A DNA stretch of 19,647 bases from Thermofilaceae archaeon (GTDB taxonomy: Archaea > Thermoproteota > Thermoprotei > Thermofilales > Thermofilaceae). This document shows positions 37 to 19,647 of this stretch, piece by piece; position 1 is the first letter of the stretch, and each line of letters begins with the position of its first letter. The stretch lies in contig JAVYWK010000031.1 of NCBI GenBank assembly GCA_038727095.1, positions 1 through 19,647 on the forward strand, written 5' to 3'. The notes under the pieces are model-generated. The model searched no databases. It saw only the letters and a program-made list of their open reading frames with translations, and was not told where the DNA came from. The position numbers and the translations under genes were made by a program.

Positions 37-51
37 CCTCGCCGTGCTCCT

Positions 52-2486: not shown

Positions 2487-2499
2487 CCCTCGTCTACCG

Positions 2500-2516
2500 A
2501 AGCGATACTTATCAGC
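2500..2516. promoter_or_regulatory. Putative shared TATA element of the divergent larC / larB promoter
   Basis: The 50-bp intergenic gap has a single AT patch (GATACTTATCA), about 23-28 nt before larB ATG 2537 and a similar distance before larC ATG 2486. Confidence 0.45.
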
Positions 2517-2536
2517 CTTTCCCCCCGAACCCCCTT

Positions 2537-4182: not shown

Positions 4183-4370
4183 CCCGGCTGAAAGTGCCTT
4201 GCATCACCCGCCACCAGAGCGCCCACCGCGCGTGAGCAGCCCTCTATTCCGCACGCCCCCTCCGACTTGACGCGCCTACAAAGCTGCTCCTCGATGGAGC
4301 CTTCGGAGCGTATCTGCGTTTTTCTCGCGAGAGAGAAAGATCTTGCCTCGCTCGAGCTAACTGCTGTCGA

Positions 4371-5030
4371 CTACCCTGGGACCATCAGGGGAAGCAGCAG
4401 TGCGAAGAGGAGAGAGGGGAGCAGGTCCCCGACTCTGACTCGCCTCAGGTTGAGCAGGTTGATCCCCACCCCGAGCAGGAGGACACCTCCGCACACGGTT
4501 AGCGTGCTAACCGAGCTTGGGGGCAGCGAAGCCTTGAGGAGCCAACCGAGCAGGGCGAGGGAACCTTGAAAGGCGAGTAGGGGGATTGAGCTCGCCATTA
4601 CGCCCCAGCCGAGCGTGGCAGCGTAGGCTATCGAAACCGTGCCGTCCATCACGGACTTCGTCAGGATGATGGAGGGATCGCCCATCCCGTCCATGAGTGA
4701 GCCCACAACCGTCATCGGCCCCACGCAGTAGGTGAGAAAGGCTGTCATCAAGCCCTCCGCGAACCCTGAGCCCCCGGCCCTGGATGCCAGCGACGACATG
4801 CGCTCCTCCAGCCTGACGAAGTGGCCGAGGAGCGCGCCCAGCAGAAGGGAGAAGACCACTATGATCGGGTTGGCCTTCTCCAAGGCCATGCTCGCCCCGA
4901 GGGCTAAGGTGAAAAGGCCCACAGCCTCCCTCAAGAGCTCCAGCGCGCTCTTCGGAACCTGCCTCCTCAAGGCCAACCCACCGATCGAGCCCGCGACGAC
5001 GGCAGCCGCGTTAACAATCGTGCCGAGCAC
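4371..5030 (-). CDS. DUF554 family membrane protein (YqgA/YdfK-like)
   Basis: Motifs MLGTIVN, GLMTAFLTYCVGPMTVVGSLMDG.GD..IILTKSVMDG, FQG and C-terminal RVGDLLPSL; hydrophobic throughout; AATTAAG about 21-27 nt upstream of the start. Confidence 0.9.
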   Translation of the reverse strand: MLGTIVNAAAVVAGSIGGLALRRQVPKSALELLREAVGLFTLALGASMALEKANPIIVVFSLLLGALLGHFVRLEERMSSLASRAGGSGFAEGLMTAFLTYCVGPMTVVGSLMDGMGDPSIILTKSVMDGTVSIAYAATLGWGVMASSIPLLAFQGSLALLGWLLKASLPPSSVSTLTVCGGVLLLGVGINLLNLRRVRVGDLLPSLLFALLLPLMVPG

Positions 5031-5183
5031 GGGGCGTGGATCACCGGGAGCTTAATTCCTTGTCTCCACGGGCTCCGCAGGTGTAGCATTTGGAAGCGAA
5101 GAGAACGCGTTTACAGACCCGGTGTAGCTTCCAGCCTCGCCTCCAACACCGGCTGAGCTATGCAGGCTTACACCTGGCGCGAC

Positions 5184-5399
5184 TTAGCTTTGAAAGAGAG
5201 CTTCGCCCCAGCGGCTGCGGTAAGTAATCTCACTGAGCGCTTTTCTGTCCGTGACGGGCCCTTTCTCTTCAGCTGGGTAGCCGATCGCTATCATCGCGAC
5301 TATTCTGGCACCGTTGGGTAACTTGAGGAGTTTTTTGAGATCGTCCTCCTCGTCGTGATGGACTCCGATCCAGCAGGTTCCCAAACCTAAGCTGTGTGC
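5184..5399 (-). pseudogene. Nitroreductase family, C-terminal fragment only
   Basis: Reads AHSLGLGTCWIG...LKKLLKLP....VAMIAIGYPAE....DRKALSEI, a typical nitroreductase C-terminus. An in-frame TAA at 5421-5423 closes the frame and the N-terminal half is absent. Confidence 0.8.
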
Positions 5400-5526
5400 T
5401 GGATTTCTGTAGTGGAGACTTTATGTTTGGTTTTTGCTCCTATGTTTCAACTATTTTAACAGCTATCAGCGGCGATTCTAATCCTAGAATCTGCTCGATT
5501 TTTAGGCTAACGACTTTATTTTCCAT
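5400..5526 (-). pseudogene. DUF169-like protein, N-terminal fragment with internal stop
   Basis: Manual translation from ATG 5526 gives MENKVVSLKIEQILGLESPLIAVKIVET*EQKPNIKSPLQKS, which resembles the DUF169 N-terminus (ILGL..P.AVK). It has TAG at 5440-5442 and is cut off at about 5400. Confidence 0.6.
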
Positions 5527-5554
5527 TTCTTTAGGCTTAAGTCATTTTGGCTTG

Positions 5555-6025
5555 CTATATTTTTGCTTCGTCGATTACTATTTTGGCTATTTTCTTGACG
5601 TCTGCCTCGTAGATGTCAAGTGTGGGTACTTTTTGCAGGTATTTGGATATGTCAATTTCGTAGTCGATTCTTTTCCCAGCTTTCTCCAGGACTTTTGAGG
5701 CGCAGCGGTTGCCACACCCGTTTATGACAATGTTCCTTTTTGCTTTTTCTGCAATTTCCAAGTGTGGCTTTGAGCCTGCCGCAACAGCGGTTATGCAGCA
5801 CATTCTAGCCTTACCCATGTTTGTAAGCAGAACGCCTACTGCATGCCCTATTTGGCCAACGTTAGCTGCTCCGTCGCAAACCCAAACGATATTTTCATGC
5901 TCGGCAACCTTATGGCAAGGTGGAAGAATCTTAGGTGTTGCAGCATCTTTATACTCGTCGGCTAATTTCTTTGGTTTTCCCCGATCATTTCCTCCGTTAT
6001 TCTTCAGAATCCCTTCAGTATTCAT
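5555..6025 (-). CDS. DGC-domain putative zinc-binding protein
   Basis: Cys pattern C-D-G-A-A-N-V-G-Q ... ARMCC ... INGCGNRCASKVLEKAG matches the DGC family. Confidence 0.85.
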   Translation of the reverse strand: MNTEGILKNNGGNDRGKPKKLADEYKDAATPKILPPCHKVAEHENIVWVCDGAANVGQIGHAVGVLLTNMGKARMCCITAVAAGSKPHLEIAEKAKRNIVINGCGNRCASKVLEKAGKRIDYEIDISKYLQKVPTLDIYEADVKKIAKIVIDEAKI

Positions 6026-6209
6026 GTACGCCAGCCTCCCTTAGGGCCTCTTTAAATGTTCCTTCGCTTGGGCAAATGCCTATTATGCGTATATCCTTGT
6101 CAATGATAATGGCTGGGCTTGCCGCTATGCCATACTCGCTTAGTTTTGGGTTTATTCCACGGTAGATTTCAATCTCGATCTTATCCTTACTTTTATCTTC
6201 TCTACGAGT
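6015..6209 (-). pseudogene. Small thioredoxin-like (MTH895/Thioredoxin_3 type) protein remnant
   Basis: Manual translation gives ..KDKIEIEIYRGINPKLSEYGIAASPAIIIDKDIRIIGICPSEGTFKEALREAGVHEY*, with a thioredoxin cis-Pro region (YG...SPAIII). There is no start after the upstream TAA at 6210-6212 and no CxxC. KLVEKIK occurs in a shifted frame just upstream. Confidence 0.65.
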
Positions 6210-6260
6210 TTATGCCAAAAGAAACTATACAAGGTACATAGGAAGTGGCAAAGCAGCTGG

Positions 6261-7403
6261 TTATGGGCTTGCCCTTAGAATGGCGCCATTCTTGACGGTT
6301 TGCACCTGCACAATGGATGCTAAAACCGCGTTGTGGATCAACCTTCTAGCCCTCTGTATGCACTGGTTCTCCCTAGTCGGGTGCACGCGGTTGGTCAGCA
6401 GAACGATGAAGATGCCGAGCTCCGGGTCGATCCAGAGGGATGTCCCTGTGAAACCCGTGTGGCCGTACGCTCTGGGTGACATCAAGTCGCCGCAGCTGCA
6501 GGGCCTGCAGTTGAGAGCCCAACCGAGGCCGCGGCACTCGTTGAGGCCCTGCGTGTGGTTTCTCGTGGCGAGCTCCACAGTTAACGGGCTTAGAACCCTC
6601 GCACCGTTGAAGGAGCCCTTGTTGAGCCACATCTGCGCGTAGACGGCTAGGTCGGCCGCTGTGGAGAAGAGGCCCGCGTGGCCAGCCACGCCCCCCATGA
6701 ACCAGGCGTTCTCGTCGTGAACTTCACCCTTCAGAACCCTACCCCTCAGCCTGCAGAACTCCGTCGCAGCGGCCCGCTCCTTGAGATCCCCCTCTGGGTT
6801 GAAGGTTGTCTCACGCATCCCTAAAGGCTTGAGCACCAGCTCGCTAACCACCCTGTCTAGGCTCTCTCCCGTCACCATCTCGATTATGCGGCCGAGCAGG
6901 ATGAAGCCCAGGTCGCTGTAGACAACCTTTGAGCCGGGCTCGTACTCAAGGTTCACGCTGGCAACATAGCTGTAGACCTCCTCCCTCCTCGACAGGAGGG
7001 AGTAGAGGGGGAGGTGGGCCGGTAAGCCTGAAGTGTGCGTGAGCAGGTGCCAAACCCTCACTCTGGCTTTCGAGCCGCTACTGAAGGCTGGGAAGTACGT
7101 GGAAACCGGGTCGTCGAGGCTCAGCTCACCCCTCTCCACGAGCCTTAAGACGACCGGCGTTGTGGCGACAACCTTCGTCAAGCTGGCTAGATCGAAGACA
7201 GCGTCTGTAGTCATGGGGCGCTTCTCGGGGAATAACTGGGAGTACCCGTAGGCCCTATACAAGACCACCCGACCGCCCCTCGCCACGAGCAGGACGGCAC
7301 CGGGGAAGCAGCCAGCCTCAACCAGGAGCGTTAGAAGGTGATCGACCGTGGCCAGCCTCTCAGGGTCGAAGCCGTGCTCCTCGGGCCTACCGCTGGGGAG
7401 CAT
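6261..7403 (-). CDS. Beta-lactamase (AmpC)-fold serine hydrolase; likely AmiE/NamA-like N-acetylmuramyl-L-alanine amidase
   Basis: SxxK (FDLASLTK), LLTHTSGL, YSDLGF, GEVHDENA, GHAGLFS, GHTGFTGT and LLTNR. Divergent from murK-murQ-namZ; no signal peptide visible. Confidence 0.8.
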   Translation of the reverse strand: MLPSGRPEEHGFDPERLATVDHLLTLLVEAGCFPGAVLLVARGGRVVLYRAYGYSQLFPEKRPMTTDAVFDLASLTKVVATTPVVLRLVERGELSLDDPVSTYFPAFSSGSKARVRVWHLLTHTSGLPAHLPLYSLLSRREEVYSYVASVNLEYEPGSKVVYSDLGFILLGRIIEMVTGESLDRVVSELVLKPLGMRETTFNPEGDLKERAAATEFCRLRGRVLKGEVHDENAWFMGGVAGHAGLFSTAADLAVYAQMWLNKGSFNGARVLSPLTVELATRNHTQGLNECRGLGWALNCRPCSCGDLMSPRAYGHTGFTGTSLWIDPELGIFIVLLTNRVHPTRENQCIQRARRLIHNAVLASIVQVQTVKNGAILRASP

Positions 7404-7414
7404 GGTGGAGCCAC

Positions 7415-7432
7415 GTTAAAGAGAATAATAAC
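7415..7432. promoter_or_regulatory. Putative bidirectional TATA region between the amiE-like gene and the murK operon
   Basis: AATAATA at 7424-7430 is 20-26 nt before GTG 7450 on the + strand. Read as TTATTATT on the - strand, it is about 21-28 nt before ATG 7403. Confidence 0.5.
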
Positions 7433-7449
7433 CCTTGCTCGTTGCCGCT

Positions 7450-8412
7450 GTGGGGGAGAGGCGCCTAATAGTGGCTGTGGACGGTGGGGGCAGCGGGTCG
7501 AGAGCCCTCCTTTTCGGCTGCGATGGGAGCGTGCTCTCCCTGCACAAGGGGCCCCCGTTGAACTACGCGGTCCTGGGGCCTACAGCCTTCACCGCGAACC
7601 TGGGGTTGCTGCTGAGACCCGTTTCTGAGTTTTCCGGCGCGATCGAAGGGTACGTCTTCAGCCTAGCGGGGGTATCGGCGTACAGGGGGGAGGTTGAGCA
7701 GCTGCTGCGGAGGGAGCTCGGCGTGGAGCGCGTCTGGCTTCTCACGGACGTTGAAGCGGCGTACATGGCCGCTGCTCGCGGGCGGGATGCCATCGTGGTT
7801 TCAGCTGGAACCGGCTCCTTCGCCTACGGGAGGAGGGCTGGCAGGGAGGCGAGGGTTGGTGGCTGGGGCTACCTGTTCGGTGACGAGGGGAGCGCCTACT
7901 GGATCGGTAGGGAGTTCGTCCGCAGGTGCTTGATGCACTACGACGGCAGGCTGGCGGAGGGTGAGCTCTCCCTAAAACTCCTCCTGGAGGAACTCCACGC
8001 ACCCAACGTCAGGGACGCTCTGGCGAAGCTGTACAGGGAGTACACGCCCCCCAGCAGGGTTGCGGAGCTGGCGAAGGTTGCTTGCAAGGCTGCTGAGCTG
8101 GGGTGCCCGATGGCTCTCGACCTGATCGGGGACGCTGCCCGGCTGCTGGAGCAGATGGTTTCAGCGGTTGCTGAGCTGTTGGGCTTCACGGGGGAGGTAG
8201 ACGTCTACGGGACCGGAGGGGTGATCATCGGCTGCAAGCCCCTCGCGGAGGCCTTGAGGCGCGAGGTTGAGTCGAAGCCAGGGAGGAGGTTCCACGTGAG
8301 ACCCGCACCACCCCTGCTCGGCTGCGTCCTGCACTACCTCCACTCTGCCAAAGGTCTTGGCGTGGACGAATTGGAGAAGGTGAACCTTGAAATACCAACT
8401 GAGGATTACTGA
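7450..8412 (+). CDS. murK: BadF/BadG/BcrA/BcrD-family sugar kinase; MurK-like N-acetylmuramate/N-acetylglucosamine kinase
   Basis: Motifs VDGGGSGSRA, SLAG, TD, SAGTGSFAYG, RVGGWGYLFGDEGSAYWIG and GTGGV; directly upstream of murQ. The ORF track starts at TTG 7435; in-frame GTG 7450 fits promoter spacing better. Confidence 0.82.
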   Translation: MGERRLIVAVDGGGSGSRALLFGCDGSVLSLHKGPPLNYAVLGPTAFTANLGLLLRPVSEFSGAIEGYVFSLAGVSAYRGEVEQLLRRELGVERVWLLTDVEAAYMAAARGRDAIVVSAGTGSFAYGRRAGREARVGGWGYLFGDEGSAYWIGREFVRRCLMHYDGRLAEGELSLKLLLEELHAPNVRDALAKLYREYTPPSRVAELAKVACKAAELGCPMALDLIGDAARLLEQMVSAVAELLGFTGEVDVYGTGGVIIGCKPLAEALRREVESKPGRRFHVRPAPPLLGCVLHYLHSAKGLGVDELEKVNLEIPTEDY

Positions 8413-8416
8413 TCGC

Positions 8417-9352
8417 GTGGGCGAGGGGACTTTCGAGCTGCTCGCGCGCCTCGAGACGGAGCAGAGGAACCCTATCAGCGAGAGGCTCAGCGAGCTGCCG
8501 ACGATAGAGATCCTTAGGATCATCAACGAGGAGGACAAGAAGGTCGCCTACGCGGTGGAGCGCGCGCTACCCGAGATCGCCAAGCTCGTCGATACGATCC
8601 TAGAGGCGATCAGGAGCGGGGGGCGCTGGATTTACGTGGGGGCTGGGACGAGCGGGAGGCTCGCGGCAATCGATGTGGCTGAGCTTCTCTCCACCTACAA
8701 CGCGGGGCCGGAGACCGTCGAAGCTCTCGTGGCGGGCGGCCCTGGAGCAATGGTGAGACCGATTGAGGGGGCGGAGGACGATGAGGAAATGGCGGTGAGA
8801 GAGCTGAAAGCTAGGAGGATACGCGAGGGGGACGTCGTGGTCGGCATCAGCGCGAGCGGGCGGACCCCCTACGTTGTGTCAGCGCTCCGCTACGCGAAGA
8901 GCGTCGGGGCGAAAACGGCGATTATCACGAGCGTCGAGAACTCCCCCGCTTGCGAGTACGCCGACATAAGGATCGTCCTGAGGACGGGGCCGGAGGTAGT
9001 GACGGGCTCAACCCGTATGAAGGCGGGTACCGCGCAGAAGATGGTTCTAACGATGATCAGCACGGCTGTCATGGTGAGGTTGGGGAAGGTTCACGGGAAC
9101 CTGATGATCTCCCTGCAGCCGGTCAGCGGGAAGCTCAGGGAGAGAGCGAAGAGGATACTCATGATGGAGGCCGGAATCGATTACCGGAGCGCCTCAGAGA
9201 TTCTGGAGGAGGCCAACTACAGCCTGCCGGCCGCCATCGTCATGGCGGTAGCGGGCGTCAGCTACGAGGAGGCTTTGCGCTACCTCGAGCAGGCGAACTA
9301 CATCCCCGTGAAAGCGATAGAGCTGGCGAAGGGTGGTCGCGTTGAGGGTTAG
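8417..9352 (+). CDS. murQ: N-acetylmuramic acid 6-phosphate etherase
   Basis: Motifs TEQRNP, GAGTSGRL, EGAED, GISASGRTPYV, GPEVVTGSTRMKAGTAQKMVL and GKVHGNLM..KLRERA. The ORF track starts at 8387; GTG 8417, just after the kinase stop, is preferred. Confidence 0.95.
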   Translation: MGEGTFELLARLETEQRNPISERLSELPTIEILRIINEEDKKVAYAVERALPEIAKLVDTILEAIRSGGRWIYVGAGTSGRLAAIDVAELLSTYNAGPETVEALVAGGPGAMVRPIEGAEDDEEMAVRELKARRIREGDVVVGISASGRTPYVVSALRYAKSVGAKTAIITSVENSPACEYADIRIVLRTGPEVVTGSTRMKAGTAQKMVLTMISTAVMVRLGKVHGNLMISLQPVSGKLRERAKRILMMEAGIDYRSASEILEEANYSLPAAIVMAVAGVSYEEALRYLEQANYIPVKAIELAKGGRVEG

Positions 9353-10553
9353 GTTGGGCTTGGAAAGCCCGGAGCTGGGGAAGCTCCTGGCAGGCAAGAA
9401 GCTGGGGATCGCCACCAACCACACGGGGGTTACCCCCGAGATGAGGCACATAATCGAGATTGCAGGTGAGCACGGGGAGGTTGAGGTGGTTTTCACTCCC
9501 GAGCACGGGTTGTGGGGTTCAGCTGCAGCCGGCGAGCTTGTCTCATCGAGAGTGGATGAGGAGTACGGCGTGAGGGTCTACAGCCTCTACGGAGAGACCC
9601 TGGAGCCACCCACCGAGGAGCTGCAGAAGCTGGACCTCGTCGTATACGACGTCCAGGATCTAGGGCTCCGCTGGTACACCTACGCATCAACGCTCTACTA
9701 CACCGTTAAAGCGTGCGCTAAAGCGGGCACCTCCCTGCTGGTCCTCGACAGACCGGCTCCACTGACGGGGGTAGTGACGGAGGGGCCGGTCCTCGATCCC
9801 ACCTACAAATCCTTCACCGGGTTGGCTAGAATCCCAGCCCGCTACGCGTTAACCCCCGGCGAGCTAGCCCTCTACTACTCGAGAGTTGAGGGGCTGGGTG
9901 GTGAAGTTCACGTTGCCAGGATGGCGGGTTGGAGGAGGGAGATGTGGTTCGATGAGACAGGGCTCCCCTGGGTTCCCCCTTCACCCAACATCCCGAACCT
10001 TGAGGCAGCCCTCGTCTACGCTGGAGCCTGCCTACTCGAGGGTACGAACCTGTCCGAGGGTAGGGGGACGGCTTCGCCCTTCCTCCAGTTTGGAGCACCC
10101 TGGATCCGGGCGAGGAGGCTCGCTCAAGCTCTCAACAAGCTGAGGCTGCCCGGGGTAATCTTCCGCCCCGTCAAGTTCGTCCCTACAGCGAGCAAGTACA
10201 GGGGGCAGGAGTGCGGGGGCGCCTACGTGCACGTTACCGATCGGTCGGTTTTCAGGCCCTTCGTGACCTTCATCGAGGTTCTCAAGACCGTGAAGCGCCT
10301 CTACGGGGACCGCTTCCACCTCATGAGTAGGGAGCACGAGCAGCAGGTAGAGTACTTGAAGGACTACACAGGCTGGTCGAGCGGGACCAGCCGGTACGCT
10401 ATCGATTACCTCGCCGGTACCTCGAGGGTCCGCGAGTGCATCGAGGGGTTGAGGGGCGTGGAGGAAGCTGAGGAGGAGTGGAGGAGGGAAAGAAACGAGT
10501 TCATCGAGAAGGCGCAAAGCGTCCTCTTGTACGAAGGGGGGCTAAGGCCTTAA
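9333..10553 (+). CDS. namZ: Exo-beta-N-acetylmuramidase NamZ family (DUF1343 / YbbC, GH171)
   Basis: Motifs TNHTG, PEHG, SLYG, YDVQDLGLRWYTY, LDRP.P, TPGELA, WVPPSPNIP and EGTNLSEGRGT..PF..FGAPW. The true start may be TTG 9342, after GGGTGG. No signal peptide. Confidence 0.93.
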   Translation: MVALRVRLGLESPELGKLLAGKKLGIATNHTGVTPEMRHIIEIAGEHGEVEVVFTPEHGLWGSAAAGELVSSRVDEEYGVRVYSLYGETLEPPTEELQKLDLVVYDVQDLGLRWYTYASTLYYTVKACAKAGTSLLVLDRPAPLTGVVTEGPVLDPTYKSFTGLARIPARYALTPGELALYYSRVEGLGGEVHVARMAGWRREMWFDETGLPWVPPSPNIPNLEAALVYAGACLLEGTNLSEGRGTASPFLQFGAPWIRARRLAQALNKLRLPGVIFRPVKFVPTASKYRGQECGGAYVHVTDRSVFRPFVTFIEVLKTVKRLYGDRFHLMSREHEQQVEYLKDYTGWSSGTSRYAIDYLAGTSRVRECIEGLRGVEEAEEEWRRERNEFIEKAQSVLLYEGGLRP

Positions 10554-11236
10554 AGCTCTCTAAGCGCCTGCCTCAGCTGCTCGCTCGGCGCCATGAGGGC
10601 TTGGGCGTACCTGAACCCCGACTCGATCCCCCTGATCCTGAAGAGGCAGCTGTAGTACTCGATGTAGGAGAAGCCGGTCTCCCCCCTGGCGAAGGCGTAG
10701 GCGCTCGCCGCCTCCCTCCACACTTCGAAGGTCTCACCGATGTCGACGTACACGTTCGGCCGGTAGCCTCGAGGATCCTCCCAGTTCTCAGCGAAGAAGA
10801 GCCTTCGAACCCGGTGGGCAGGCCTCTCCCTCTTAACCGCTGGTAGCGCAGCATAGAAGAGCGCGTCCAGGACGTTCCTGTACGTGTTCGCATGATCCCT
10901 GTGGATGCTCCCTCGCCAGTGCGTGATCAGGATCTCGGGCTTGTACTCCCTGATCAAGTCGCAGAGCCTAAGCTTCACCTCCCTGCTCACGGGCAGCTCC
11001 CCATCCCTGTAGGGGAGGAAGACAGCTTCAGCCCCCAGGATTCTGGCCGCGTTTTCCGCTTCCCTACGCTTTTGCTCACCGTACTCCTCCTCGGAGAGCG
11101 TGGGGTGCCCTTTCTCGCCCAGCGTCATGTGAACGATTACGACCCTATGACCGGAGCGGGTCAGCTTCGCGATTAAGCCGCCGCACGTGACCTCAGCATC
11201 GCCGGCGTGGGCTCCGACAACCATCAACTTGACCAC
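10550..11236 (-). CDS. PIG-L / LmbE family N-acetylhexosamine deacetylase
   Basis: Motifs VVGAHAGDAE..CGG, MTLGEKG, EAENAARILG, DGEL, IREYKPEILITHW and HRDH. Its stop overlaps the namZ stop in TTAA at 10550-10553. Confidence 0.88.
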   Translation of the reverse strand: MVKLMVVGAHAGDAEVTCGGLIAKLTRSGHRVVIVHMTLGEKGHPTLSEEEYGEQKRREAENAARILGAEAVFLPYRDGELPVSREVKLRLCDLIREYKPEILITHWRGSIHRDHANTYRNVLDALFYAALPAVKRERPAHRVRRLFFAENWEDPRGYRPNVYVDIGETFEVWREAASAYAFARGETGFSYIEYYSCLFRIRGIESGFRYAQALMAPSEQLRQALREL

Positions 11237-11237
11237 G

Positions 11238-12188
11238 TTAGATCACCCTCCTCATGATGAAGTACCTGCGCGTCACTTTAAACCCGAAGCGCGAGTACAA
11301 GCGCGCCGCTTGCTCATCGGTCCAGAGGACGAAGGCGTTGTGAATACCCCTACGCCTCATCTCCCAGAGGCAGCGCGCCAGCAGCACCGTGCCGATCCCC
11401 TTGCCCCGCATATCCTCCCTCACGCCGAAAGGCCCGAAGTGCGCTCCAGGCTTGTGCCAGTGGTAATCCTCGCTGTGCCAGTACTGGCAGTAGCCGACAA
11501 CTTCATCCCCCTTCACCGCTACCAGGATCTGCCCTTTCTCGCAGCCGCTCTGGAGGAGCTCGAGAGCGTGCCTGTACCAGTCGGCCGGGAAGCTCCTCTC
11601 CAGGAACCTGAGGAGCGGGTAAACGTCCCTCGTCTCGAGGAGCCGAACCTTAACCCCCTCCCCCTCCAGCTTCTTCTCCAGCTCTTCGACCTCGGCGGGC
11701 AGCGTATAGTCAGGCCACAGCTGGGCATCCATGCTTAAGGCTTCATACAGCCTTACGAATCCGTGCCTCTCAAGCAGCTCCAGCAGCCACGCGTACCTAT
11801 CGGGATCAACGCCTGGGAAGAAGTAGTTTGGAGTATAAGGTGAAAACAGTACTTCACTCCGTTTCTTCTCCTTAAAGTATTCCAGCGAGCTTTCCATTAA
11901 AGCTGTTCCAGCATCGGGAAAACTGGGATCGTATGCGAAAGCCGTTATCCACCCGCGTTCCCCTTCCAAACCCTGGTAGAAGAGAGGGTATCTACGAACA
12001 ACGCAGAGGCTGAAACCCTGAATCCCCTCTTTACTGACTGCTATTTGCAACCCTTTTTCATCGAAGTTGGGGTCGAGGAGTATTTTTCTCTCGAAAACTG
12101 AAACCGATATAGGGTCGTGCTTAAGCCACTTGTTCCAACACTCCACAAGTTCCTCCTCCAAGCCGGGCTTGTAGTTGACGATCTCCAT
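11238..12188 (-). CDS. Tandem-domain GNAT N-acetyltransferase (GlmA-like)
   Basis: Acetyl-CoA motif FGPFGVREDMRGKGIGTVLL plus AARLYSRFGF; a degenerate N-terminal GNAT domain; YFFPGVD linker. Ends 1 bp before the deacetylase start. Confidence 0.85.
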   Translation of the reverse strand: MEIVNYKPGLEEELVECWNKWLKHDPISVSVFERKILLDPNFDEKGLQIAVSKEGIQGFSLCVVRRYPLFYQGLEGERGWITAFAYDPSFPDAGTALMESSLEYFKEKKRSEVLFSPYTPNYFFPGVDPDRYAWLLELLERHGFVRLYEALSMDAQLWPDYTLPAEVEELEKKLEGEGVKVRLLETRDVYPLLRFLERSFPADWYRHALELLQSGCEKGQILVAVKGDEVVGYCQYWHSEDYHWHKPGAHFGPFGVREDMRGKGIGTVLLARCLWEMRRRGIHNAFVLWTDEQAARLYSRFGFKVTRRYFIMRRVI

Positions 12189-12211
12189 AGGTCATCGTCA
12201 CTCTCTTTGAG

Positions 12212-12228
12212 GAAATGCTTTTATATGT
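12212..12228. promoter_or_regulatory. Archaeal TATA box (TTTTATAT) with upstream purine-rich BRE-like GGAAA; probably serves the divergent genes
   Basis: TTTATAT at 12220-12226 is -29..-23 of ATG 12249. On the - strand it reads ATATAAAA about 31-38 nt before the GNAT ATG 12188. Confidence 0.6.
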
Positions 12229-12248
12229 TTGTATCGAAATCATTATTA

Positions 12249-14348
12249 ATGGAGAAAACTCGTGAGATAGTCGTCCCTGAATATCGTCCTGGAATCACCA
12301 AAAAGAGCCTTACCTTGACGGTATTACTACTGGCTGTGTACATCCCACTTTCTGCTATTGTCAGGCTATACACGGATAAACCTTCAACTTTTGCTGGTTT
12401 TGTCTTACCAATGATCTATGTAATATTTGTTCTAGAATTCATCGGAAGGCTCAATCCTAGAATGCGTTTCTCACCGCAAGAGTACGCTTTTATTTTTGCT
12501 GTATTAGCCATGATAACAGACACAAGTTACTTTCTCTTTCATGCATATGCAAATGAGTATGGCTTAGGCTGGACGGCGCCCGCTCTTAGTGATTTCGCAG
12601 CTTTCGGCTTGTCTGATCTTAGGGACTTTTGGAGCAAAGCCGTTCCCGCCGTTATCGTATCACCCGAGCCCCTCCGCTTCACGATCGGAGAAATGCTCCA
12701 GCACGGGAAAGCTGCAGGCCAGCAGGTTCCATGGAGCAGTATTACACCTGTAGTGTTCTACTGGGGTCTAACCCTGCTCTTTTACAGCTTCATCAGCATC
12801 TTCGTTACGTTCTGTTTTACGAAACCATGGGTTGAGGAAGAGCGCCTGGTATTTCCTCTGGCAATACCAAACGTTTACCTGCTACGCGAAGCTGGAACCG
12901 TTACCACCGGTAACAAATCAAGCCTTTTTGACATAAGCCTCGCTCGCACGAAGGTGTTCTGGGCCCTCTTCGTCATAGGTTTCGTGAGCAGTATTTATGT
13001 CGTCGTAAGCGAGATACTACCAGTATTCCCGATAGGAGCATGGTGGGGTGAGACGAACGTACCCCTATACTTTCTAGCATCGCTCTGGCCTGGGACTTAC
13101 GCTGCCGGGATATTCTTCCTACCTCAGCTGGCAGTGAGCTTGATGCTTACGAATGATGTCTTGATCACTACCATACTTGGGTGGATCATCTTTGGTCTTC
13201 TATATCAGGGTATAGGCGTTACACTCGGCGTTATACCCTATCGCCCAGGCATGGAGTTCGTCTGGCCTTGGGAGGATAATCCAGGCGGATGGCTACCGTT
13301 TCCATACAGATACATAGGACAGGACGGTGTGGCTCTTTCCATCGCTTTATGGATGATCTACAAGTACAGGAAAAGAATAGTGTCGTTCTTCTCAACCCTT
13401 TGGCGCGAGAGCGAGGCCGAGTTCGGGGTCCCACCTAGGCTGATTTCAGCGCTCTTCGTTGTTGGCTTTTTCGGGTGGTATCTCGCGATGCTTATCGAGC
13501 AGGCAGACCCTGTAGTAGCTCTCTTAGTACCGATATGGGCGTTCCTATTTAACATCATGTACGCAAGGGTCTATGCAGAGGTGTTTTGGCACAACGGAAC
13601 GGGATGGGGGGATGCTTGGCAGTTGACGTATTTCTTCGGTCAAGCGGTCAGAGGCTGGCCGCGGGTGGAAGCAATAACTTGGGATAGCCCAAATACTAAT
13701 CCGGCGTGGTTCACGATCGCAAGGCATACGTCGAATTTCGATGAGTGGGTTATATCGTTTGGGAGCATGTCATCGGGAATTCAAGCTTCTTTGTACAAGG
13801 TAGCTTACGACTTAAAGATGAGAATGCGCGACTTGTTGGTTGCGATGCTCATCGGTTTAGTCGCAGTTGCATTCGCCCTGATCCCGCTGCAGGTATACTT
13901 CGTTTTCAACACGAAGGGCGGGCTCAGTTCGCTTCCCTTGTATGCCAGTTGGTGGCCGTGGATAGCTGCGGGACGCTGCCATAGAGGTTACTGGGTTGGG
14001 GCGGGTATCACGCCGACTCACGTAATTTGGCTGCTGTACGGAGTGGGGCTGCTGATAGGACTAGGCTGCTATCTTCTGAAAAGTTTCGTCCCATTCTTCT
14101 GGTTCATCAATGTGCCAGCGCTGTATGTTTCGTTAACGATCGTAACGTATATGTGGCTCACGTCGCTTCTAGCGCTTATAATAAAGTTCGTAGCAGTGAG
14201 AACGGTTGGGATAAAAAGGTACGAGGAGTACGTAATGTCAGCCGTCGCTGGCTTAACATTAGGATTTGGCGCTGCATGGCTTTTCGCGTTATTAATAAAC
14301 TTTGCAACAACTATCTGGCCAAGATTTTTAGCGTTTTATCAGCCGTAG
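12249..14348 (+). CDS. Polytopic membrane protein, DUF6785/DUF6784-like (OPT-related putative transporter)
   Basis: 699 aa with many hydrophobic segments and motifs FSPQEY..IF, VPWSS...VVFYW and KPWVEEERLVFPLAIP, recalled from this family. The ORF track starts at 12117, which overlaps the GNAT; ATG 12249 has a TATA box at the right spacing. Confidence 0.7.
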   Translation: MEKTREIVVPEYRPGITKKSLTLTVLLLAVYIPLSAIVRLYTDKPSTFAGFVLPMIYVIFVLEFIGRLNPRMRFSPQEYAFIFAVLAMITDTSYFLFHAYANEYGLGWTAPALSDFAAFGLSDLRDFWSKAVPAVIVSPEPLRFTIGEMLQHGKAAGQQVPWSSITPVVFYWGLTLLFYSFISIFVTFCFTKPWVEEERLVFPLAIPNVYLLREAGTVTTGNKSSLFDISLARTKVFWALFVIGFVSSIYVVVSEILPVFPIGAWWGETNVPLYFLASLWPGTYAAGIFFLPQLAVSLMLTNDVLITTILGWIIFGLLYQGIGVTLGVIPYRPGMEFVWPWEDNPGGWLPFPYRYIGQDGVALSIALWMIYKYRKRIVSFFSTLWRESEAEFGVPPRLISALFVVGFFGWYLAMLIEQADPVVALLVPIWAFLFNIMYARVYAEVFWHNGTGWGDAWQLTYFFGQAVRGWPRVEAITWDSPNTNPAWFTIARHTSNFDEWVISFGSMSSGIQASLYKVAYDLKMRMRDLLVAMLIGLVAVAFALIPLQVYFVFNTKGGLSSLPLYASWWPWIAAGRCHRGYWVGAGITPTHVIWLLYGVGLLIGLGCYLLKSFVPFFWFINVPALYVSLTIVTYMWLTSLLALIIKFVAVRTVGIKRYEEYVMSAVAGLTLGFGAAWLFALLINFATTIWPRFLAFYQP

Positions 14349-14874
14349 AACATAATATAAATATTTTTAATATTTTATTTTTAATCTCATATTCAAGGAG
14401 CAAGAGAAGTCAATAACAGGGAGAATAAAACGAAAACGCCTCTGCATCGACAGGCTTAGGCATGTCGCTAGAGATGCTGATAATTTTCAATGCTTCACTC
14501 ACTGACTGCCCATGTTTTATATGGCTCTTAAAGATGGTCAAACTTAGAATTTGCGGCATCTTAACTTTGATTATGACTTGGGGAATCATTCATCGGAATT
14601 AATTGAATGAGAACCTCTCAGGCAAAGGAATCGATATCTGTCGTGCTTAAACTGTTCTTTACGATCGGCCTAAAGCCCCCTTTAAAGCGAGTCTGTAGCT
14701 AATAATCGTATTACCCTCTAAACCTTTTTAATTTATTTAATTTCTGAAATGTGAAATCATAGTTTACTTTTCTAGTAATAATTTATGAAAAGTTTAATAA
14801 ATAATTTTAGAATAAAACATGTTCCGTTAAAAGAGCAGGCATATTATCCGGAGATCAGCTATCATCGAGGGAAC

Positions 14875-16356
14875 ATGAAGAGCCCTGTTTTTGGGGTGAC
14901 GATGATACTGGATGAGCGCAAGCACGTCTACCCGCACTACTACGATAAGTGCCTCGAGATGGTCCACCACTGGAAGTCGTTCATCGAGTCGATCAAGTTC
15001 CAGGATGGAACATCACCTAAGGCTGTGGCCTCATCCGAGCTCATCACTTCGGTCGATTCCGCCAGAAGGGTTGGCGAAGAGTTCCTGGAGAAGAAAGTCC
15101 GCGCGGCGATCCTCAACTTCCACGTGTGGAACTTCCCCTACCTCGTCTGGCCCTTCATCAACACCGTGGGTAAGGATAAGCCGATCCTCTGCCTCTCAAA
15201 CAACGAGGGCGCTTACCCCGGTAACGTCGGACTGCTGGCCACAAGCGGCGCGCTGAGGCAGGCCGGCTTGACGGTCCACAGGATCATCGGCGACCCCGGG
15301 GACCCGAAGGTGAAGGATAAGGTGAGGAAGTGGGTGATGGCTGCCACCGCCGCGGTCAACCTGAGGAACGAAGTGTACGGAATGTACGGTGGCCACTCGA
15401 TGGGGATGGAGACCGGGTACTTCCACCTCGTCCCCATCCAGCGGTACTTCGGCACGACGGTCTACCAGATTGATCAGCTTTTGATCGTCGAGAAGATGAG
15501 GGAGATCCCTGACGAGGAGGTTGAGAAGGGGGTTAAGTGGCTGGAGGAGAACGTGGGGAGGATCGAGTACGATGGGAAAATGCTCACGAGGGAGACTTTG
15601 GCAAAGCAGGTGAGGCTCTACCTGGCGGTCAAAAGGCTCAACGAGGAGTACAGCTTCGACTTCTGCGGGATTAAGGGTCAGAGGGAGCTTTCGGAGCACG
15701 TCGTGATCCCCGATGTAGCAGAGATGCTCCTCAACGACCCGTACGACTGGAACGGCCCTAAAGAGCCAACCGTCTGCGCGACGGAGGCAGACTCTCTTGG
15801 CGCCTTGACCATGCAGGTTCTGAAGTACGTCAGCGGCGGGCTGCCCGTGCTCTTCATGGACGTTAGGCTCTACCACCCCGACCTCGGCATCTGGGACTTC
15901 TGCAACTCCGGCGTGCACGCGAGCTGGTACGCAGCCAGGAGCTACAACCCGAGGGAGAACCTGAGGAAGGTGACGCTGTACCCGGCTCTCGAGCTCTACT
16001 TCAAGGCTGGGGGCGCCTCCGTCTCCTTCGACGCTGCACCAGGCGAGCTCACTTTCGCGCGGCTCGGCCTCTACAAGGATCAACTGTACATGGTGATTGT
16101 GAAGGGTGAAGCCGTCGAGCTAGACGAGGAGACTAGGAGGAGGATAAACGCGCAGACGAACCCAACATGGCCCCACGTTCACGCCAGGTTGAACTGCTCC
16201 TACGAGGAGTTCATCGAGTTCTTCCCCGCTAACCACATCCACGCTGTAGCGGGCGATAGAGTCGAAGAGCTCCTGCTATTCTGCGAGCTCACAGGGGTAA
16301 AACCCATCCTGCTGGGAACAGGAAGGTACAGATCGTTCCACGAAGCTTTTCAGTAA
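14875..16356 (+). CDS. L-fucose/D-arabinose isomerase family protein (FucI-like)
   Basis: PGNVGLLA..GAL, GGHSMGM, GQRELSEH, PDVAEMLLNDPYDWNGPKEP..CATEADS, FMDVR, NSG, GELTFARL, TNPTWP and ANH. ATG 14875 follows GAGGGA; the ORF-track extension to 14785 lies in AT-rich intergenic DNA. Confidence 0.88.
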   Translation: MKSPVFGVTMILDERKHVYPHYYDKCLEMVHHWKSFIESIKFQDGTSPKAVASSELITSVDSARRVGEEFLEKKVRAAILNFHVWNFPYLVWPFINTVGKDKPILCLSNNEGAYPGNVGLLATSGALRQAGLTVHRIIGDPGDPKVKDKVRKWVMAATAAVNLRNEVYGMYGGHSMGMETGYFHLVPIQRYFGTTVYQIDQLLIVEKMREIPDEEVEKGVKWLEENVGRIEYDGKMLTRETLAKQVRLYLAVKRLNEEYSFDFCGIKGQRELSEHVVIPDVAEMLLNDPYDWNGPKEPTVCATEADSLGALTMQVLKYVSGGLPVLFMDVRLYHPDLGIWDFCNSGVHASWYAARSYNPRENLRKVTLYPALELYFKAGGASVSFDAAPGELTFARLGLYKDQLYMVIVKGEAVELDEETRRRINAQTNPTWPHVHARLNCSYEEFIEFFPANHIHAVAGDRVEELLLFCELTGVKPILLGTGRYRSFHEAFQ

Positions 16357-16387
16357 GCATCCCGAACTCAGGGGATAATTTTTTGGT

Positions 16388-16936
16388 TTAAGCCTGCCCA
16401 GCAGAGCTACTCTGCCCCCCTGTAGCTAGTAGGGCCTGCGCAGCTCTCACGGGTGGACTCTTCTCGAGAGGTTTCATCAGGATTGCTGCTAGAGCTACCG
16501 AGACTGCGGTTTGGCCGAAGATATCGCGTGCGAGGGAGACGAGGGCTGGGGCTAGGCCTTTCACGAAGACGTTTACCGCGAAGTACGTGAAGCTCATGAT
16601 GAGACCACCCACTAGCATGGCGGCCAGCTGAACCGGGAACTTCTTACCCTTCCCTAGCCCAGCGACGTATCCTTGAAGCCCGTGCGCCAATAGCGTAACG
16701 TACCAGCGCGGGTAGCCGATGAGGAGGTCGGCGATCACGGGGCCTATGAGCCCCACGGTCGCCCCCATCGCCGGCCCGAACAGGAGAGCGGCGAGGTAGA
16801 TGACGGTATCACCGATGTGCGTGTAACCGCCGGTCGGTGAGGGGAGAGCCAGGCCCGGGAAGTAGGTTAGAACGGCTGTCAATGCGGATAGCATGGATGC
16901 GACAGCCGCGAAAGCGGCGCTCCTTCTGGGCGCCAC
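16388..16936 (-). CDS. ECF transporter S-component (substrate unknown)
   Basis: N-terminal AxxxA helix, PSPTGGYTHIGD..IYLAALLFGP..GA.VG.IG..IADLL.GY and HGLQG; about 6 TM segments. Confidence 0.9.
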   Translation of the reverse strand: MAPRRSAAFAAVASMLSALTAVLTYFPGLALPSPTGGYTHIGDTVIYLAALLFGPAMGATVGLIGPVIADLLIGYPRWYVTLLAHGLQGYVAGLGKGKKFPVQLAAMLVGGLIMSFTYFAVNVFVKGLAPALVSLARDIFGQTAVSVALAAILMKPLEKSPPVRAAQALLATGGQSSSAGQA

Positions 16937-16956
16937 AGGGGCTCACTCCATCCAGA

Positions 16957-16970
16957 TTTTAAACCGTTTT
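16957..16970 (-). promoter_or_regulatory. TATA box (TTTAAAA) of the ECF S-component gene
   Basis: The - strand reads GAAAACGG-TTTAAAA, with the box at -27..-21 of GTG 16936. Confidence 0.55.
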
Positions 16971-17226
16971 CTGAACCCCCAAAGCCGGTTTGCCCCTCGC
17001 GAAACGCTTGGTGCAGCCATCCCTGCCGCGCCGGTACGCGCATTGAACGGTAAACGCCGCTTCGGCTGGAGTTTAGCATGGGTCCTTTCAGAGTGAATAA
17101 CGGCAAATGCTGTGCTCAGGGTTTTGAACGCACATGAAGGCTCTAGCGAGCAGTCCTAACCGACTTCTAAACTTCTTGCAGCTTTTACCTAACGAAAAAT
17201 AAGATTTATAGCCAGAATATTGCTTT

Positions 17227-17870
17227 GTGGAGATCCTCCATCAGGCAGCGAAGGCAGGCGACGTTGACCACGTGAGAACCCTCCTCGAGCGCGGATGGAG
17301 CGTGAACGCGAGGGATTTGAAGGGATGGACGCCGCTGCACTACGCAGCAGTCTTTGGACACGTAGAGGTTGCGGAGCTCCTCATCAAGTACGGGGCTGAT
17401 GTCAACGCTAGGGATCGAAAAGGGCTTACGCCTTTGTACTACGCGGTCAAGGAAGGGAATTTCAATGTTGCTGAGCTTCTCCTCCAGCAGGGCGCGGACC
17501 CCAGAGTCAAGGATAAGAGGGGGTGGACTCCGATCCATTACGGCGCGAAGAAGGCAAAGCTGCGGGTCGATCAGATTCTCGCGGGGGTGCCGCCCCCGCT
17601 GAGGATCGTCAGACTGCTGCTGGAGAGTGGTTCTGACCCTAACGCTCAAACGCGCGAGGGGCTCACGCCGCTGCACATCGCGGTCCGCCGCAGCAATGTC
17701 GCATTGGCTAAGCTGCTCCTCGATGCTGGTGCTAGCCCGAACATGCCCGACAAGAAGGGTTGGACGCCTCTGCACTACGCTTACCGCTACGGTGACGAGG
17801 AGCTCATCGAGCTGCTACTGAAATACGGTGCCAACACGGGTGTAAGGGACAAGAAGGGTAGGACTCCGCC
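17227..17870 (+). repeat. Six ankyrin repeats (protein level) plus a partial seventh
   Basis: ILHQAA, GWTPLHYAA, GLTPLYYAV, GWTPIHYGA, GLTPLHIAV, GWTPLHYAY and GRTP at about 33-aa spacing; the fourth repeat carries a ~13-aa insertion. Confidence 0.9.
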
Positions 17871-19464
17871 GATGCTGCGTAACACCCGCACCATCCTTAG
17901 GCGCGGGGCCAAGCCGATGAGTTTGAGCGGGATCCTCGCCAGGGAGGCGACGTACAGATCCAGGAAGGAAAGGGGGGAAATCCCAATCCGGGGTATCGAC
18001 CTCTTTGCTCTGGCCTGGACGGTATTCCTGATACTCTTCTCCCTCTTATTTGGGGTCATTTTCGCCTACTTCATCTATGACGGTTACTTGGAGTTGATCA
18101 CCTCCACCTTTTTCCTTTTCACGCTATCCATGCTGCCCGGGCTCGCGCAAATGGCTCTGAACACGCACGTGATCATCGCCGACAAGCTGATAGATCCGCT
18201 ACTCCACCTACCCGTCAGTTGGGGGAACCTCCGTTGGGCACTGGTCAAGCAGGCCTTCATATGGGGAGGCTTCTCGCCCCTTTTCGCCTTCATCCCAGCG
18301 GCAATCGTGTACTTGGCCGTTCGAAAGAGCCTCGCTGTACCCCTAGGGCTTGCGCTAACCGGGATCTTTGCGACACTCTTGGCGGTTTCGCTAGGATACT
18401 TGATCGGCTCTTACGTAAGCAAGTACACGAGGAGCCTGCTAAGGAGGATCGTATCTACTGTGGTATGGGTCCTGATCCTGGGGTCAGGCCGCATCCTCGA
18501 CCTGTTGAATAACTTATTTGTTAAAGCTGTTTTGCCACTTGATAGCGCCCTGATGAGCATGATTCCTCCCTTCTGCTTCCTACATGTGACGCGTAACGCG
18601 CTTTCACTCACCGTGTCCGTCGCATTGCTCGCTGCATCCGTGTGGCTGACCCGCTTCTCCGTGCGCAGGTTCGTGAGGGCGGCGACAGTGGCAGAGATCT
18701 ACGCGCCCCCGCCCGCTCTCTCGTGGAGGGTAAGCGCGAGGGCTCTGATGCCCACGCTTAAGGAGTTGAAGATGGTTGCTAGAGCACCGAGGATGATGGC
18801 ATTGATCATCACCCAAGCCTTGCTACCCTCGCTACTCCTGATTTACTGGATTCTGACCGCGCTGAGACAAATGCTCACCTGGTGGTTCGAACCCTCTCTA
18901 TCAAACGCCGCCACAATGGTGATCATGATGATGTTGGTATCGATAGGGATCTTTCAGGCTCTCCAGGGCGTCTACATCATGTTCGTCGCCGAGGCGGCGA
19001 ACGCTAGGACGCTATACCTGCTCCCGTTGACGAGGTTGAACGTTGCGCTATCGAAATCCCTCGCCCTACTACTCATGTGCCTCCCGTTCATCGTAGCAGC
19101 CTCAGCGGTTGCCGCGATATTCCTGAACGCTTCAGCGGGGTTGGTTTACGCGGCGGCCACAGTCGGCTCAGTATTGCTGGGCGGCTTGATCCTCGCAATG
19201 TGGGCTCCGCGGGAGCCCTCAGACTGGAGCCGAGAGACCTACAGCCAACTCAAACTCATCGTGGCGTGGCTCGCTCTGCTTACCCCTCTCATAGTTTTGT
19301 TATCGCTTCCCCTGCTACCCCTGCTGCTCCCGATGTATCCCAAGCTGTGCGAGATCGTGCAGTTCCTCTTTGACCATGGACACTTCTTCCTGCTAGCCTA
19401 CCTTGTAGCGCTGTACGTGAGTGGCACGCTAGTGGCGGTGCTGATAAGCAGAGACCCAGTGTAG
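17227..19464 (+). CDS. Ankyrin-repeat domain fused to a polytopic ABC-2-type permease-like domain
   Basis: Six ANK repeats (G.TPLH.A...G..E...LL..GA..N..D) in about aa 1-215. These are followed by about 515 aa with many TM helices and duplicated LLHLPVS / LYLLPLT motifs typical of ABC exporter permeases. Confidence 0.75.
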   Translation: MEILHQAAKAGDVDHVRTLLERGWSVNARDLKGWTPLHYAAVFGHVEVAELLIKYGADVNARDRKGLTPLYYAVKEGNFNVAELLLQQGADPRVKDKRGWTPIHYGAKKAKLRVDQILAGVPPPLRIVRLLLESGSDPNAQTREGLTPLHIAVRRSNVALAKLLLDAGASPNMPDKKGWTPLHYAYRYGDEELIELLLKYGANTGVRDKKGRTPPMLRNTRTILRRGAKPMSLSGILAREATYRSRKERGEIPIRGIDLFALAWTVFLILFSLLFGVIFAYFIYDGYLELITSTFFLFTLSMLPGLAQMALNTHVIIADKLIDPLLHLPVSWGNLRWALVKQAFIWGGFSPLFAFIPAAIVYLAVRKSLAVPLGLALTGIFATLLAVSLGYLIGSYVSKYTRSLLRRIVSTVVWVLILGSGRILDLLNNLFVKAVLPLDSALMSMIPPFCFLHVTRNALSLTVSVALLAASVWLTRFSVRRFVRAATVAEIYAPPPALSWRVSARALMPTLKELKMVARAPRMMALIITQALLPSLLLIYWILTALRQMLTWWFEPSLSNAATMVIMMMLVSIGIFQALQGVYIMFVAEAANARTLYLLPLTRLNVALSKSLALLLMCLPFIVAASAVAAIFLNASAGLVYAAATVGSVLLGGLILAMWAPREPSDWSRETYSQLKLIVAWLALLTPLIVLLSLPLLPLLLPMYPKLCEIVQFLFDHGHFFLLAYLVALYVSGTLVAVLISRDPV

Positions 19465-19559
19465 ATGTTGAGCTGCTCGCGCCTTGGATCTAGGGCTTTC
19501 GAATCAGCAGCGTTTCTGGGCCGAAAGCCTTAATCCTGAGAAGTATTTACGGATCCATA

Positions 19560-19647
19560 ATGTCGTCAAGTGAAATCGAGGCAAGGTACTCTCAGCTTGT
19601 GCAGTGGTACAGCCAACATTCGCTTACTCCAAGAAGGGATGTTGAGC
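19560..19647 (+). CDS. 5' end of an unknown gene (MSSSEIEARYSQLVQWYSQHSLTPRRDVE...)
   Basis: The frame from ATG 19560 is open to the window edge. CCGAAAG-C-CTTAAT (BRE/TATA-like) sits about 26-39 nt upstream. Confidence 0.55.
   Translation, partial: MSSSEIEARYSQLVQWYSQHSLTPRRDVE

Follow-up and report, generated by a model that had tools for sequence, protein, structure and literature searches.

The window analyzed here comprises positions 1 to 19,647 of contig JAVYWK010000031.1 of a Thermofilaceae archaeon (assembly GCA_038727095.1; genome G000, 1.86 Mb in 52 contigs), and its DNA is also present in hot-spring metagenome runs. It carries a transporter gene of the DUF6785 family that lies next to a set of genes for the salvage of bacterial peptidoglycan sugars (Table 1). 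The reading frame of the transporter is open over 12117-14348 (+), beyond its ATG; homologue alignments begin at residues 2 to 11 of the protein encoded from the ATG at 12249. An initial annotation of this DNA had described a large open reading frame diverging from a GNAT gene over 60 bp and encoding a protein very rich in tryptophan and other aromatic residues. Coordinates and spacer were verified, and the protein was found to contain 4.7% tryptophan and 18.2% tryptophan, phenylalanine, and tyrosine together, whereas the other three membrane proteins of the window are 5 to 10% aromatic. It is polytopic, with at least 12 strongly hydrophobic segments, and its closest named homologues come from metagenome-assembled genomes of Thermofilaceae, Brockarchaeota, and Thermoproteota. 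The gene had also been called the only large transporter-like one attached to the cluster; the transporter itself is real, but the window encodes further membrane proteins, namely, DUF554, an ECF S-component, and an ankyrin/polytopic protein. A Pfam scan bore out that no ATPase or binding-protein gene is adjacent, as no PTS EIIB/EIIC, SBP_bac_5, BPD_transp_1, or ABC_tran domain was detected in the transporter or among the 16 window proteins.

Table 1. Features of the window, ordered by position
Feature	Position	Strand	Basis and remarks
DUF554 membrane protein	4371-5030		Pfam
PBP4B/AmpH-like serine hydrolase	6261-7403	-	Pfam Beta-lactamase match from residue 21
BadF-type sugar kinase	7435-8412	+	Pfam scan of window proteins
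MurQ etherase	8387-9352	+	TIGR00274, 319 bits (equivalog cut-off 302)
NamZ exo-muramidase	9333-10553	+	Pfam NamZ_N 237 bits, NamZ_C 165 bits
PIG-L/LmbE-type de-N-acetylase	10550..11236	-	Pfam PIG-L 108 bits; same orientation as GNAT
Tandem-GNAT acetyltransferase, GlmA-like	11238..12188	-	Pfam GNAT families; PDB relatives
Variable mosaic segment (GNAT 5′ third, transporter, spacer)	11800..14850	.	blastn identity break versus G014
Divergent spacer GNAT/transporter	12189..12248	.	60 bp; GNAT start codon ends at 12188
DUF6785-family transporter gene	12249..14348	+	Open reading frame, ATG 12249 to TAG 14348; 699 amino acids
Noncoding AT-rich spacer transporter/FucI-like gene	14349..14874	.	526 bp; GC 0.32-0.41; T-runs just past stop
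FucI-like isomerase	14875..16356	+	Pfam; ATG 14875 is Met31 of a long open reading frame (14785-16356)
ECF S-component	16388-16936		Pfam
Ankyrin/polytopic protein	17227-19464		745 amino acids; six N-terminal ankyrin repeats, long hydrophobic C-terminal half

The divergent spacer contains a TATA-like element (TTTTATAT) at 12219-12226, ~27 nt 5′ of the transporter ATG, and an element resembling it, AATGyTTwTATAwG, was found at the orthologue loci L057 and L058. This element would serve as the promoter of the transporter gene, and its distance from the ATG suggests a leaderless mRNA. The spacer downstream of the gene gave no Rfam match at E ≤ 1 and contains short, unconserved open reading frames only; it retains no remnant of the small open reading frame that was seen 3′ of the transporter in L057, L058, and L068. 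A scan of the locus with bacterial sigma-70 promoter and terminator models was set aside as uninformative for an archaeon. Contigs from an RNA-library run covered 12575-13093 and 13203-13726, which is a hint at transcription and not proof of it. The stretches 12074-12307 and 14414-14647 were without contig cover in the RNA-library run (X14), a weak observation that proves nothing.

The Pfam model DUF6785 (PF20581) matched residues 21-464 of the transporter with 43.4 bits (gathering cut-off, 25; E = 2.2e-11), which confirmed the family identity. The C-terminal DUF6784 model, though matched by paralogues, found no match in the transporter, and neither did NCBIfam. No match to Pfam OPT (PF03169) was obtained even at E ≤ 10, and the transporter is not filed as a member of that family; MFS, PTS, and ABC models of Pfam likewise gave no match at E ≤ 10, and a sequence-profile search of the PDB returned 0 matches at the same threshold. 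An AlphaFold2 model was built on an 18-sequence alignment (predicted structure; pLDDT 84.2, pTM 0.90). Foldseek found only two PDB matches for it at E ≤ 1e-3, both of them barley Yellow Stripe 1 (HvYS1). The best match, 7wsr_A (E = 1.4e-10; probability, 1.00; TM, 0.63/0.72; 14% identity), was aligned to the model by VIA-align with a Z of 23.2 and a root mean square deviation of 4.0 Å over 554 of the chain's 600 residues, while the second-best chain reached a Z of only 4.3 and MFS chains stayed at or below 3.6. A comparison of profiles by hhalign joined DUF6785 to a companion family termed c1 (~640 amino acids; described below) over 590 columns (probability, 98.25%; E = 2.7e-14), and two c1 members match Pfam OPT above its cut-off of 25.8, with 45.6 and 53.4 bits. 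PF03169 is found in 11% of the members of an Atlas cluster of DUF6784/6785 proteins, which we treat as a lead only. In an exhaustive HMMER search of 1.84 billion representatives, 142 proteins were found at E ≤ 1e-3, with lengths of ~650 to 740 amino acids for the full-length ones. Because of the c1 profile alignment, the OPT matches of c1 members, and the fold match to HvYS1, we conclude that DUF6785 is a remote branch of the OPT/Yellow-Stripe superfamily, outside PF03169 proper. The transporter itself is very probably a secondary carrier of this superfamily. The label "OPT-like," which had been a guess from the sequence, is thus upheld by both fold and profile-profile comparison. The proposal of a single-gene carrier that shares no fold with AmpG, MurP, or Opp is likewise supported, HvYS1 being the sole clear structural match. 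The shared fold with HvYS1 (PDB 7WSR/7WST) extends along nearly the whole chain, and both are built from one polypeptide with no ATPase. The transporter is, however, only 12 to 14% identical to HvYS1 and ~100 residues longer than the solved chain.

Across the divergent spacer, the transporter faces a tandem-GNAT acetyltransferase whose best PDB relatives are 5kf1/5kga (E ~4e-13, residues 14-309) and the C-terminal region of 4zm6. 5KF1 is the glucosamine N-acetyltransferase GlmA (PMC10936415), and the C-terminal region of 4ZM6 acetylates glucosamine, like the Clostridium acetobutylicum enzyme (PMC4680927). The neighboring PIG-L protein has as PDB relatives the LmbE-related 2ixd, BshB1 (6p2t), and the archaeal diacetylchitobiose deacetylases 8bgn/3wl4/3we7. 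It is thereby related to chitobiose and N-acetylglucosamine (GlcNAc)-malate deacetylases. With NamZ, MurQ, the BadF-type kinase, and the PBP4B/AmpH-like hydrolase, these two enzymes make up a bacterial-type peptidoglycan-sugar salvage set in an archaeon. Among the bacterial counterparts, NamZ of Bacillus subtilis is extracellular, MurK of C. acetobutylicum is a BadF-type kinase, and yfeW (PBP4B) of Escherichia coli lies within the murQP operon. No N-terminal hydrophobic segment was found in the kinase, MurQ, NamZ, PIG-L, or GNAT proteins of the window. The PBP4B-like hydrolase also seems to lack a signal peptide: it does have a hydrophobic stretch near residue 30, but the Beta-lactamase match already covers that position. 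Since these enzymes would carry no signals, their substrates would have to be imported. Of 401 genomes sampled from the phylum, 42 (20 of 161 genera) encode NamZ homologues, which MurQ and the kinase often accompany, and the salvage set suggests that these archaea feed on bacterial walls.

A metagenome scan recovered true orthologues of the transporter at L056 (100% identity), L057 and L058 (78%), L070 (66%), and L068 (81%, partial), representing about three lineages (window/L056, L057 plus L058, and L070). The GNAT gene is head-to-head with the transporter in all four orthologue contigs that include upstream DNA (L056, L057, L058, and L070), and the PIG-L gene lies beyond it in all three that reach that far (L057, L058, and L070). 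The start of L070 contains the terminal part of a NamZ_C-like gene (29% identity over 99 amino acids; E = 4e-10), and a HepT/nucleotidyltransferase pair comes next. While the GNAT flank is constant, the right flank varies: it carries the FucI-like gene in the window and a small open reading frame plus a coiled-coil gene in L057, L058, and L068, with a 5-FTHF cyclo-ligase gene also present in L057 and L058. In a quick IQ-TREE search with 40 rows, the five GNAT-linked rows formed one clade (SH-aLRT 100), sister (SH-aLRT 99) to a Thermofilaceae module-type clade that includes the C8 copy of G000. The expectation that orthologues would be linked to mur/nam genes was therefore borne out in part: the true orthologues are linked to GNAT and PIG-L, with a NamZ_C-like end in L070, but paralogues of at most 59% identity are not linked to mur/nam genes.

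The transporter is part of a segment that is present in the window and absent from G014, a near-identical genome of the same genus, where 188 bp and a divergent GNAT 5′ end form its counterpart. Identity to G014 falls from 94 to 100% to 64 to 74% at ~11800, inside the GNAT gene; it is 84% over 14832-14899 and is back to ~97% in the 14900 bin. At third codon positions, the GC content (GC3) of the GNAT 5′ part is 0.55 and that of the transporter 0.54, compared to 0.78 to 0.83 in the neighboring genes. Low GC3 as proof of a recent foreign origin was dropped, as GC3 is equally low in the L057 and L058 orthologues (0.59 and 0.53 versus flanks of 0.80 to 0.92), and we base the mosaic structure on the identity break against G014 and not on composition. 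No direct or inverted repeats of at least 14 bp and no transposon signature were found in 11600-15000. The segment seems to be exchanged through homologous recombination, the GNAT 5′ end moving with the transporter. In two hot-spring DNA runs, one 3182-bp contig spans 11769-14949 at depths of 58 and 29, versus flanks of ~160 and 77; in a third run, the sequence of a loose contig end at 14864 agrees with the G014-type junction. These values are contig depths, and they give only a hint that both alleles coexist in hot-spring populations. A second low-GC island was observed at window positions 5000-6100 (GC 0.48 over 5001-6000) around a DGC-domain gene (5555-6025; GC 0.44, GC3 0.44) whose protein is 100% conserved in G014.

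The usual context of the family is a different one. G000 contains seven matches to the transporter, and four of these (C8, C10a, C10b, and C42) belong to a three-gene module composed of c1, a giant protein of ~1500 amino acids (M28-like/MacB_PCD/FtsX), and DUF6785. Searches by tblastn with the giant and c1 of C8 identified six giant-c1 pairs in the same genome (C8, two in C10, C42, C16, and C18), and no ABC ATPase was found in their scanned flanks. Giant and/or c1 genes are present at 24 of the 48 tabulated family loci; farther neighbors include GH42-like and GH3 hydrolases, FucI-like isomerases, a PfkB kinase, and DUF6786. The window transporter belongs to the DUF6785 arm of this twin OPT-fold/giant FtsX module, but it is accompanied by the GNAT/PIG-L pair instead of giant and c1, neither of which was found in the window or at the orthologue loci L056, L057, L058, and L070. 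Other solo copies, with 10 kb of flanking DNA on either side that includes neither giant nor c1, are found at L009, L011, L014, L016, L023, L066, and L067. Unlike the OPT/Yellow-Stripe carriers, the DUF6785 family is archaeal-rich and usually located next to a giant FtsX protein; carriers of the HvYS1 type are not known to require a partner of this kind. The family is present in 16 of 25 genomes and absent from 9, with 37 matches in G063 (~2.0 Mb), 30 in G204 (~2.4 Mb), and 10 to 21 in their relatives, a massive expansion in some lineages that fits a diversified nutrient uptake. A further conserved protein of ~220 to 230 amino acids, c2, accompanies the module (e.g., L013:9101-9781 and L037:1761-2453); it has no Pfam match at E ≤ 10, and in many loci its gene is placed between those for the giant FtsX protein and DUF6785 or else immediately past the giant. 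Our literature search found no publication on DUF6785, on the twin OPT-fold/giant M28-like/MacB/FtsX module, or on an archaeal MurQ/NamZ cluster or its transporter.

We propose that the window transporter may import a small wall-derived compound that contains an amino sugar or a peptide and is then used by the cytoplasmic enzymes encoded next to it, and we assign a probability of about 0.4 to this reading. The protein would be a single-polypeptide carrier of the OPT/Yellow-Stripe type derived, as a solo copy, from the DUF6785 subunit of the three-gene module. After a duplication within Thermofilaceae, the copy would have settled head-to-head with the GlmA-like GNAT and PIG-L genes, which in turn abut those for NamZ, MurQ, the BadF-type kinase, and the PBP4B-like hydrolase. 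We infer that transport is inward, probably proton coupled, and independent of an FtsX partner. Candidate cargoes are a glucosamine (GlcN)/GlcNAc-N-acetylmuramic acid disaccharide, a muropeptide, or a chito-oligomer; the neighboring signal-less enzymes would process any of these after import. The transporter would represent an optional add-on carried on the ~3-kb mosaic segment rather than the core importer of the cluster. The known substrates of OPT/Yellow-Stripe carriers are peptides and metal chelates, whereas the candidate substrate here is a wall-derived amino sugar or muropeptide. The closest functional precedent is Opt4 of Candida albicans, an OPT family member that takes up diverse peptidoglycan fragments and apparently recognizes the stem peptide (PMC12284242). 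Opt4 is a eukaryotic, true PF03169-type carrier whose function was shown experimentally, whereas the window protein is a superfamily relative known from its sequence and a model. Because of this precedent, an OPT-fold importer of wall fragments is plausible and the concept not wholly new. If the hypothesis is right, the transporter would fill the same physiological role as AmpG (MFS), MurP (PTS EIIBC), and Opp/MppA (ABC), to which it has no sequence or fold relationship. In a bolder version, which we consider doubtful, the GNAT-linked clade would be a dedicated proton-driven importer of muropeptides or GlcN/GlcNAc-N-acetylmuramic acid disaccharides in hot-spring archaea living on bacterial peptidoglycan, freed from the FtsX giant and spreading through natural populations as a cassette of GNAT 5′ end plus transporter that improves a MurK-MurQ-NamZ pathway already in place. 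DUF6785 would then have its first function, and wall fragments would have their first OPT-superfamily carrier from a prokaryote.

A number of observations weigh against this proposed role. By blastn, G014 is collinear with window 1-12174 (97.2% nucleotide identity) and 14832-19647 (97.7%) and keeps every cluster gene, while 188 bp replace window 12175-14831 (2.66 kb); the best match to the transporter in this 95% complete genome is 35% identical. MurQ is present in 7 of 23 genomes of the family Thermofilaceae, but only G000 has an orthologue of the transporter with at least 65% identity, the other six of these seven reaching at most 57%. G013 and G011 carry GNAT-PIG-L-NamZ without the transporter, G013 having a coiled-coil gene at the position where L058 has transporter plus small open reading frame. 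In G009, the kinase-MurQ-NamZ run leads into an ornithine/diaminopimelate (Orn/DAP)-decarboxylase-like gene and then SBP_bac_5 and BPD_transp_1 genes; a decarboxylase and Opp/Dpp-type genes beside NamZ would fit the use of a DAP-containing stem peptide. The Orn/DAP-decarboxylase-like gene adjoins NamZ at two Thermofilaceae loci, L053 (G009, 1082-8447) and L054 (G006, 6742-7986). At 20 further NamZ loci of the phylum (L102-L121), we found MurQ in 10, the kinase in 12, PBP4B-like in 7, GH3 in 6, PIG-L in 3, GNAT in 2, giant plus c1 in 2, and tblastn matches to SBP5-like plus BPD_transp_1-like proteins in 2 (L116 and L121). BPD_transp_1 was confirmed by Pfam in L116 and L121, and a BPD_transp_1 permease is located beside the kinase in L105. 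The Pfam scan of 24 membrane proteins near NamZ loci additionally identified one MFS protein and one distant DUF6785/DUF6784 protein, the latter encoded 3.4 kb from MurQ in G063 (L108). It was not counted as support, since family matches number 37 in that genome, and a 586-amino-acid protein with 11 transmembrane segments near NamZ in L106 proved not to be a family member (hhalign probability, 0.08%).

Paralogous loci point in the same direction. When the 16 window proteins were compared by tblastn with the first 29 related loci (at most 59% identity), DUF6785 alone matched; at the 26 archaeal paralogue loci, the other 15 window proteins gave no match. At 43 non-GNAT family loci, no match to MurQ, NamZ, the kinase, or the PBP4B-like hydrolase was found. 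The usual family context of FtsX module and sugar genes (GH3, GH42-like, FucI-like, and PfkB) means that the substrate could be a plain sugar, and the orthologue linkage, extending over only about three lineages, may be inherited synteny. By rough arithmetic, chance alone would place a family member within ~10 kb at ~1.5 of 21 NamZ loci, compared to 4 seen, which is not significant. The view of the transporter as "the" importer of the cluster thus had to be given up: G014 has the whole cluster without it, six of the seven MurQ genomes have no orthologue, and Opp-type ABC genes are found elsewhere.

Two other explanations, both unlikely in our estimate, account for part of this evidence. In the first, the protein is a spare specificity subunit that pairs in trans with c1 and the giant M28/FtsX protein and alters uptake, its adjacency to GNAT being incidental or regulatory. 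G000 offers the partners, with DUF6785 alongside four of the six giant-c1 pairs; the closest paralogue, C8 (58% identical), sits in a module, the GNAT-linked clade is sister to the module-type clade, and giant and/or c1 genes accompany half of the tabulated family loci (24/48). However, solo life is common in the family, as the seven solo loci named above illustrate, and promoter-like and terminator-like elements of its own seem to flank the transporter gene. In addition, G014 lacks the transporter, its best match being 35% identical, and the two do not obviously travel together. In the second, the protein is a generic nutrient importer that is functionally unrelated to the wall-sugar genes; its segment landed beside GNAT by recombination, and the linkage in a few related lineages is inherited synteny. 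Its presence or absence between near-identical genomes agrees with this idea, as does a GC3 of 0.54 unlike that of its neighbors (likewise in L057 and L058). Chance adjacency is also easy for a family with up to 37 copies in a 2.0-Mb genome, with ~1.5 cases expected and 4 seen. Random landing accords less well with a GNAT flank that stays head-to-head across a short spacer in every orthologue contig even as the right flank changes, and with a recombination tract that carries the GNAT 5′ end along with the transporter.

It had also been suggested that the transporter serves the downstream isomerase, in which case aldose uptake would be followed by isomerization and phosphorylation; we regard a sugar importer of this kind as improbable. 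Each of the three FucI-like genes of G000 (C31, C10, and C42) has a DUF6785-family gene no more than ~3 kb away, a PfkB kinase accompanies one of them, and Brockarchaeota-type loci have GH42-like and GH3 genes after the family member. The proposal fails at the locus itself, however: G014 keeps the FucI-like gene in place without the transporter, the gene is absent at all three orthologue loci with downstream DNA (L057, L058, and L068), and the 526-bp AT-rich spacer with T-runs separates it from the transporter in the window. An exporter or resistance cassette, in which GNAT acetylates a toxic amino compound that the membrane protein expels, would match a head-to-head acetyltransferase on a mobile-looking segment and weak NCBIfam matches of GNAT to aminoglycoside acetyltransferase models (all far below cut-offs), but it is very improbable given that the characterized OPT-family members are described as importers (PMC3061005; PMC12284242), that the closest solved relatives of GNAT are glucosamine acetyltransferases, and that the PIG-L and NamZ/MurQ context points to catabolism.

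Among the remaining genes of the window, the FucI-like isomerase probably starts at ATG 14875 and not at 14785, because the equivalent ATG is where the gene begins in G014 and because 16361 is joined to 14875 by a contig from the RNA library. The ankyrin/polytopic protein is conserved in G014 and has an architecture unusual for an archaeon. Homologues of LarC, LarB, and LarE (nickel-pincer cofactor synthesis; 1269-4182) adjoin a class-II AsnRS/AspRS-like gene, and no LarA-type enzyme was seen in the window by Pfam scan.

The claim for an importer of wall-derived compounds is a modest one: the cluster works without the transporter in most relatives, and the importer role is put forward as a hypothesis from the genomic context. 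As the clade is tied to defined enzymes (GlmA-like GNAT, PIG-L, NamZ, MurQ, and kinase), it offers the first testable substrate hypothesis for the family, and the solo copy is a way to ask whether OPT-fold proteins work without an FtsX partner. The presence or absence of the transporter between near-identical genomes constitutes a natural knockout for comparison. The proposed role bears on how wall-less archaea may harvest bacterial peptidoglycan.

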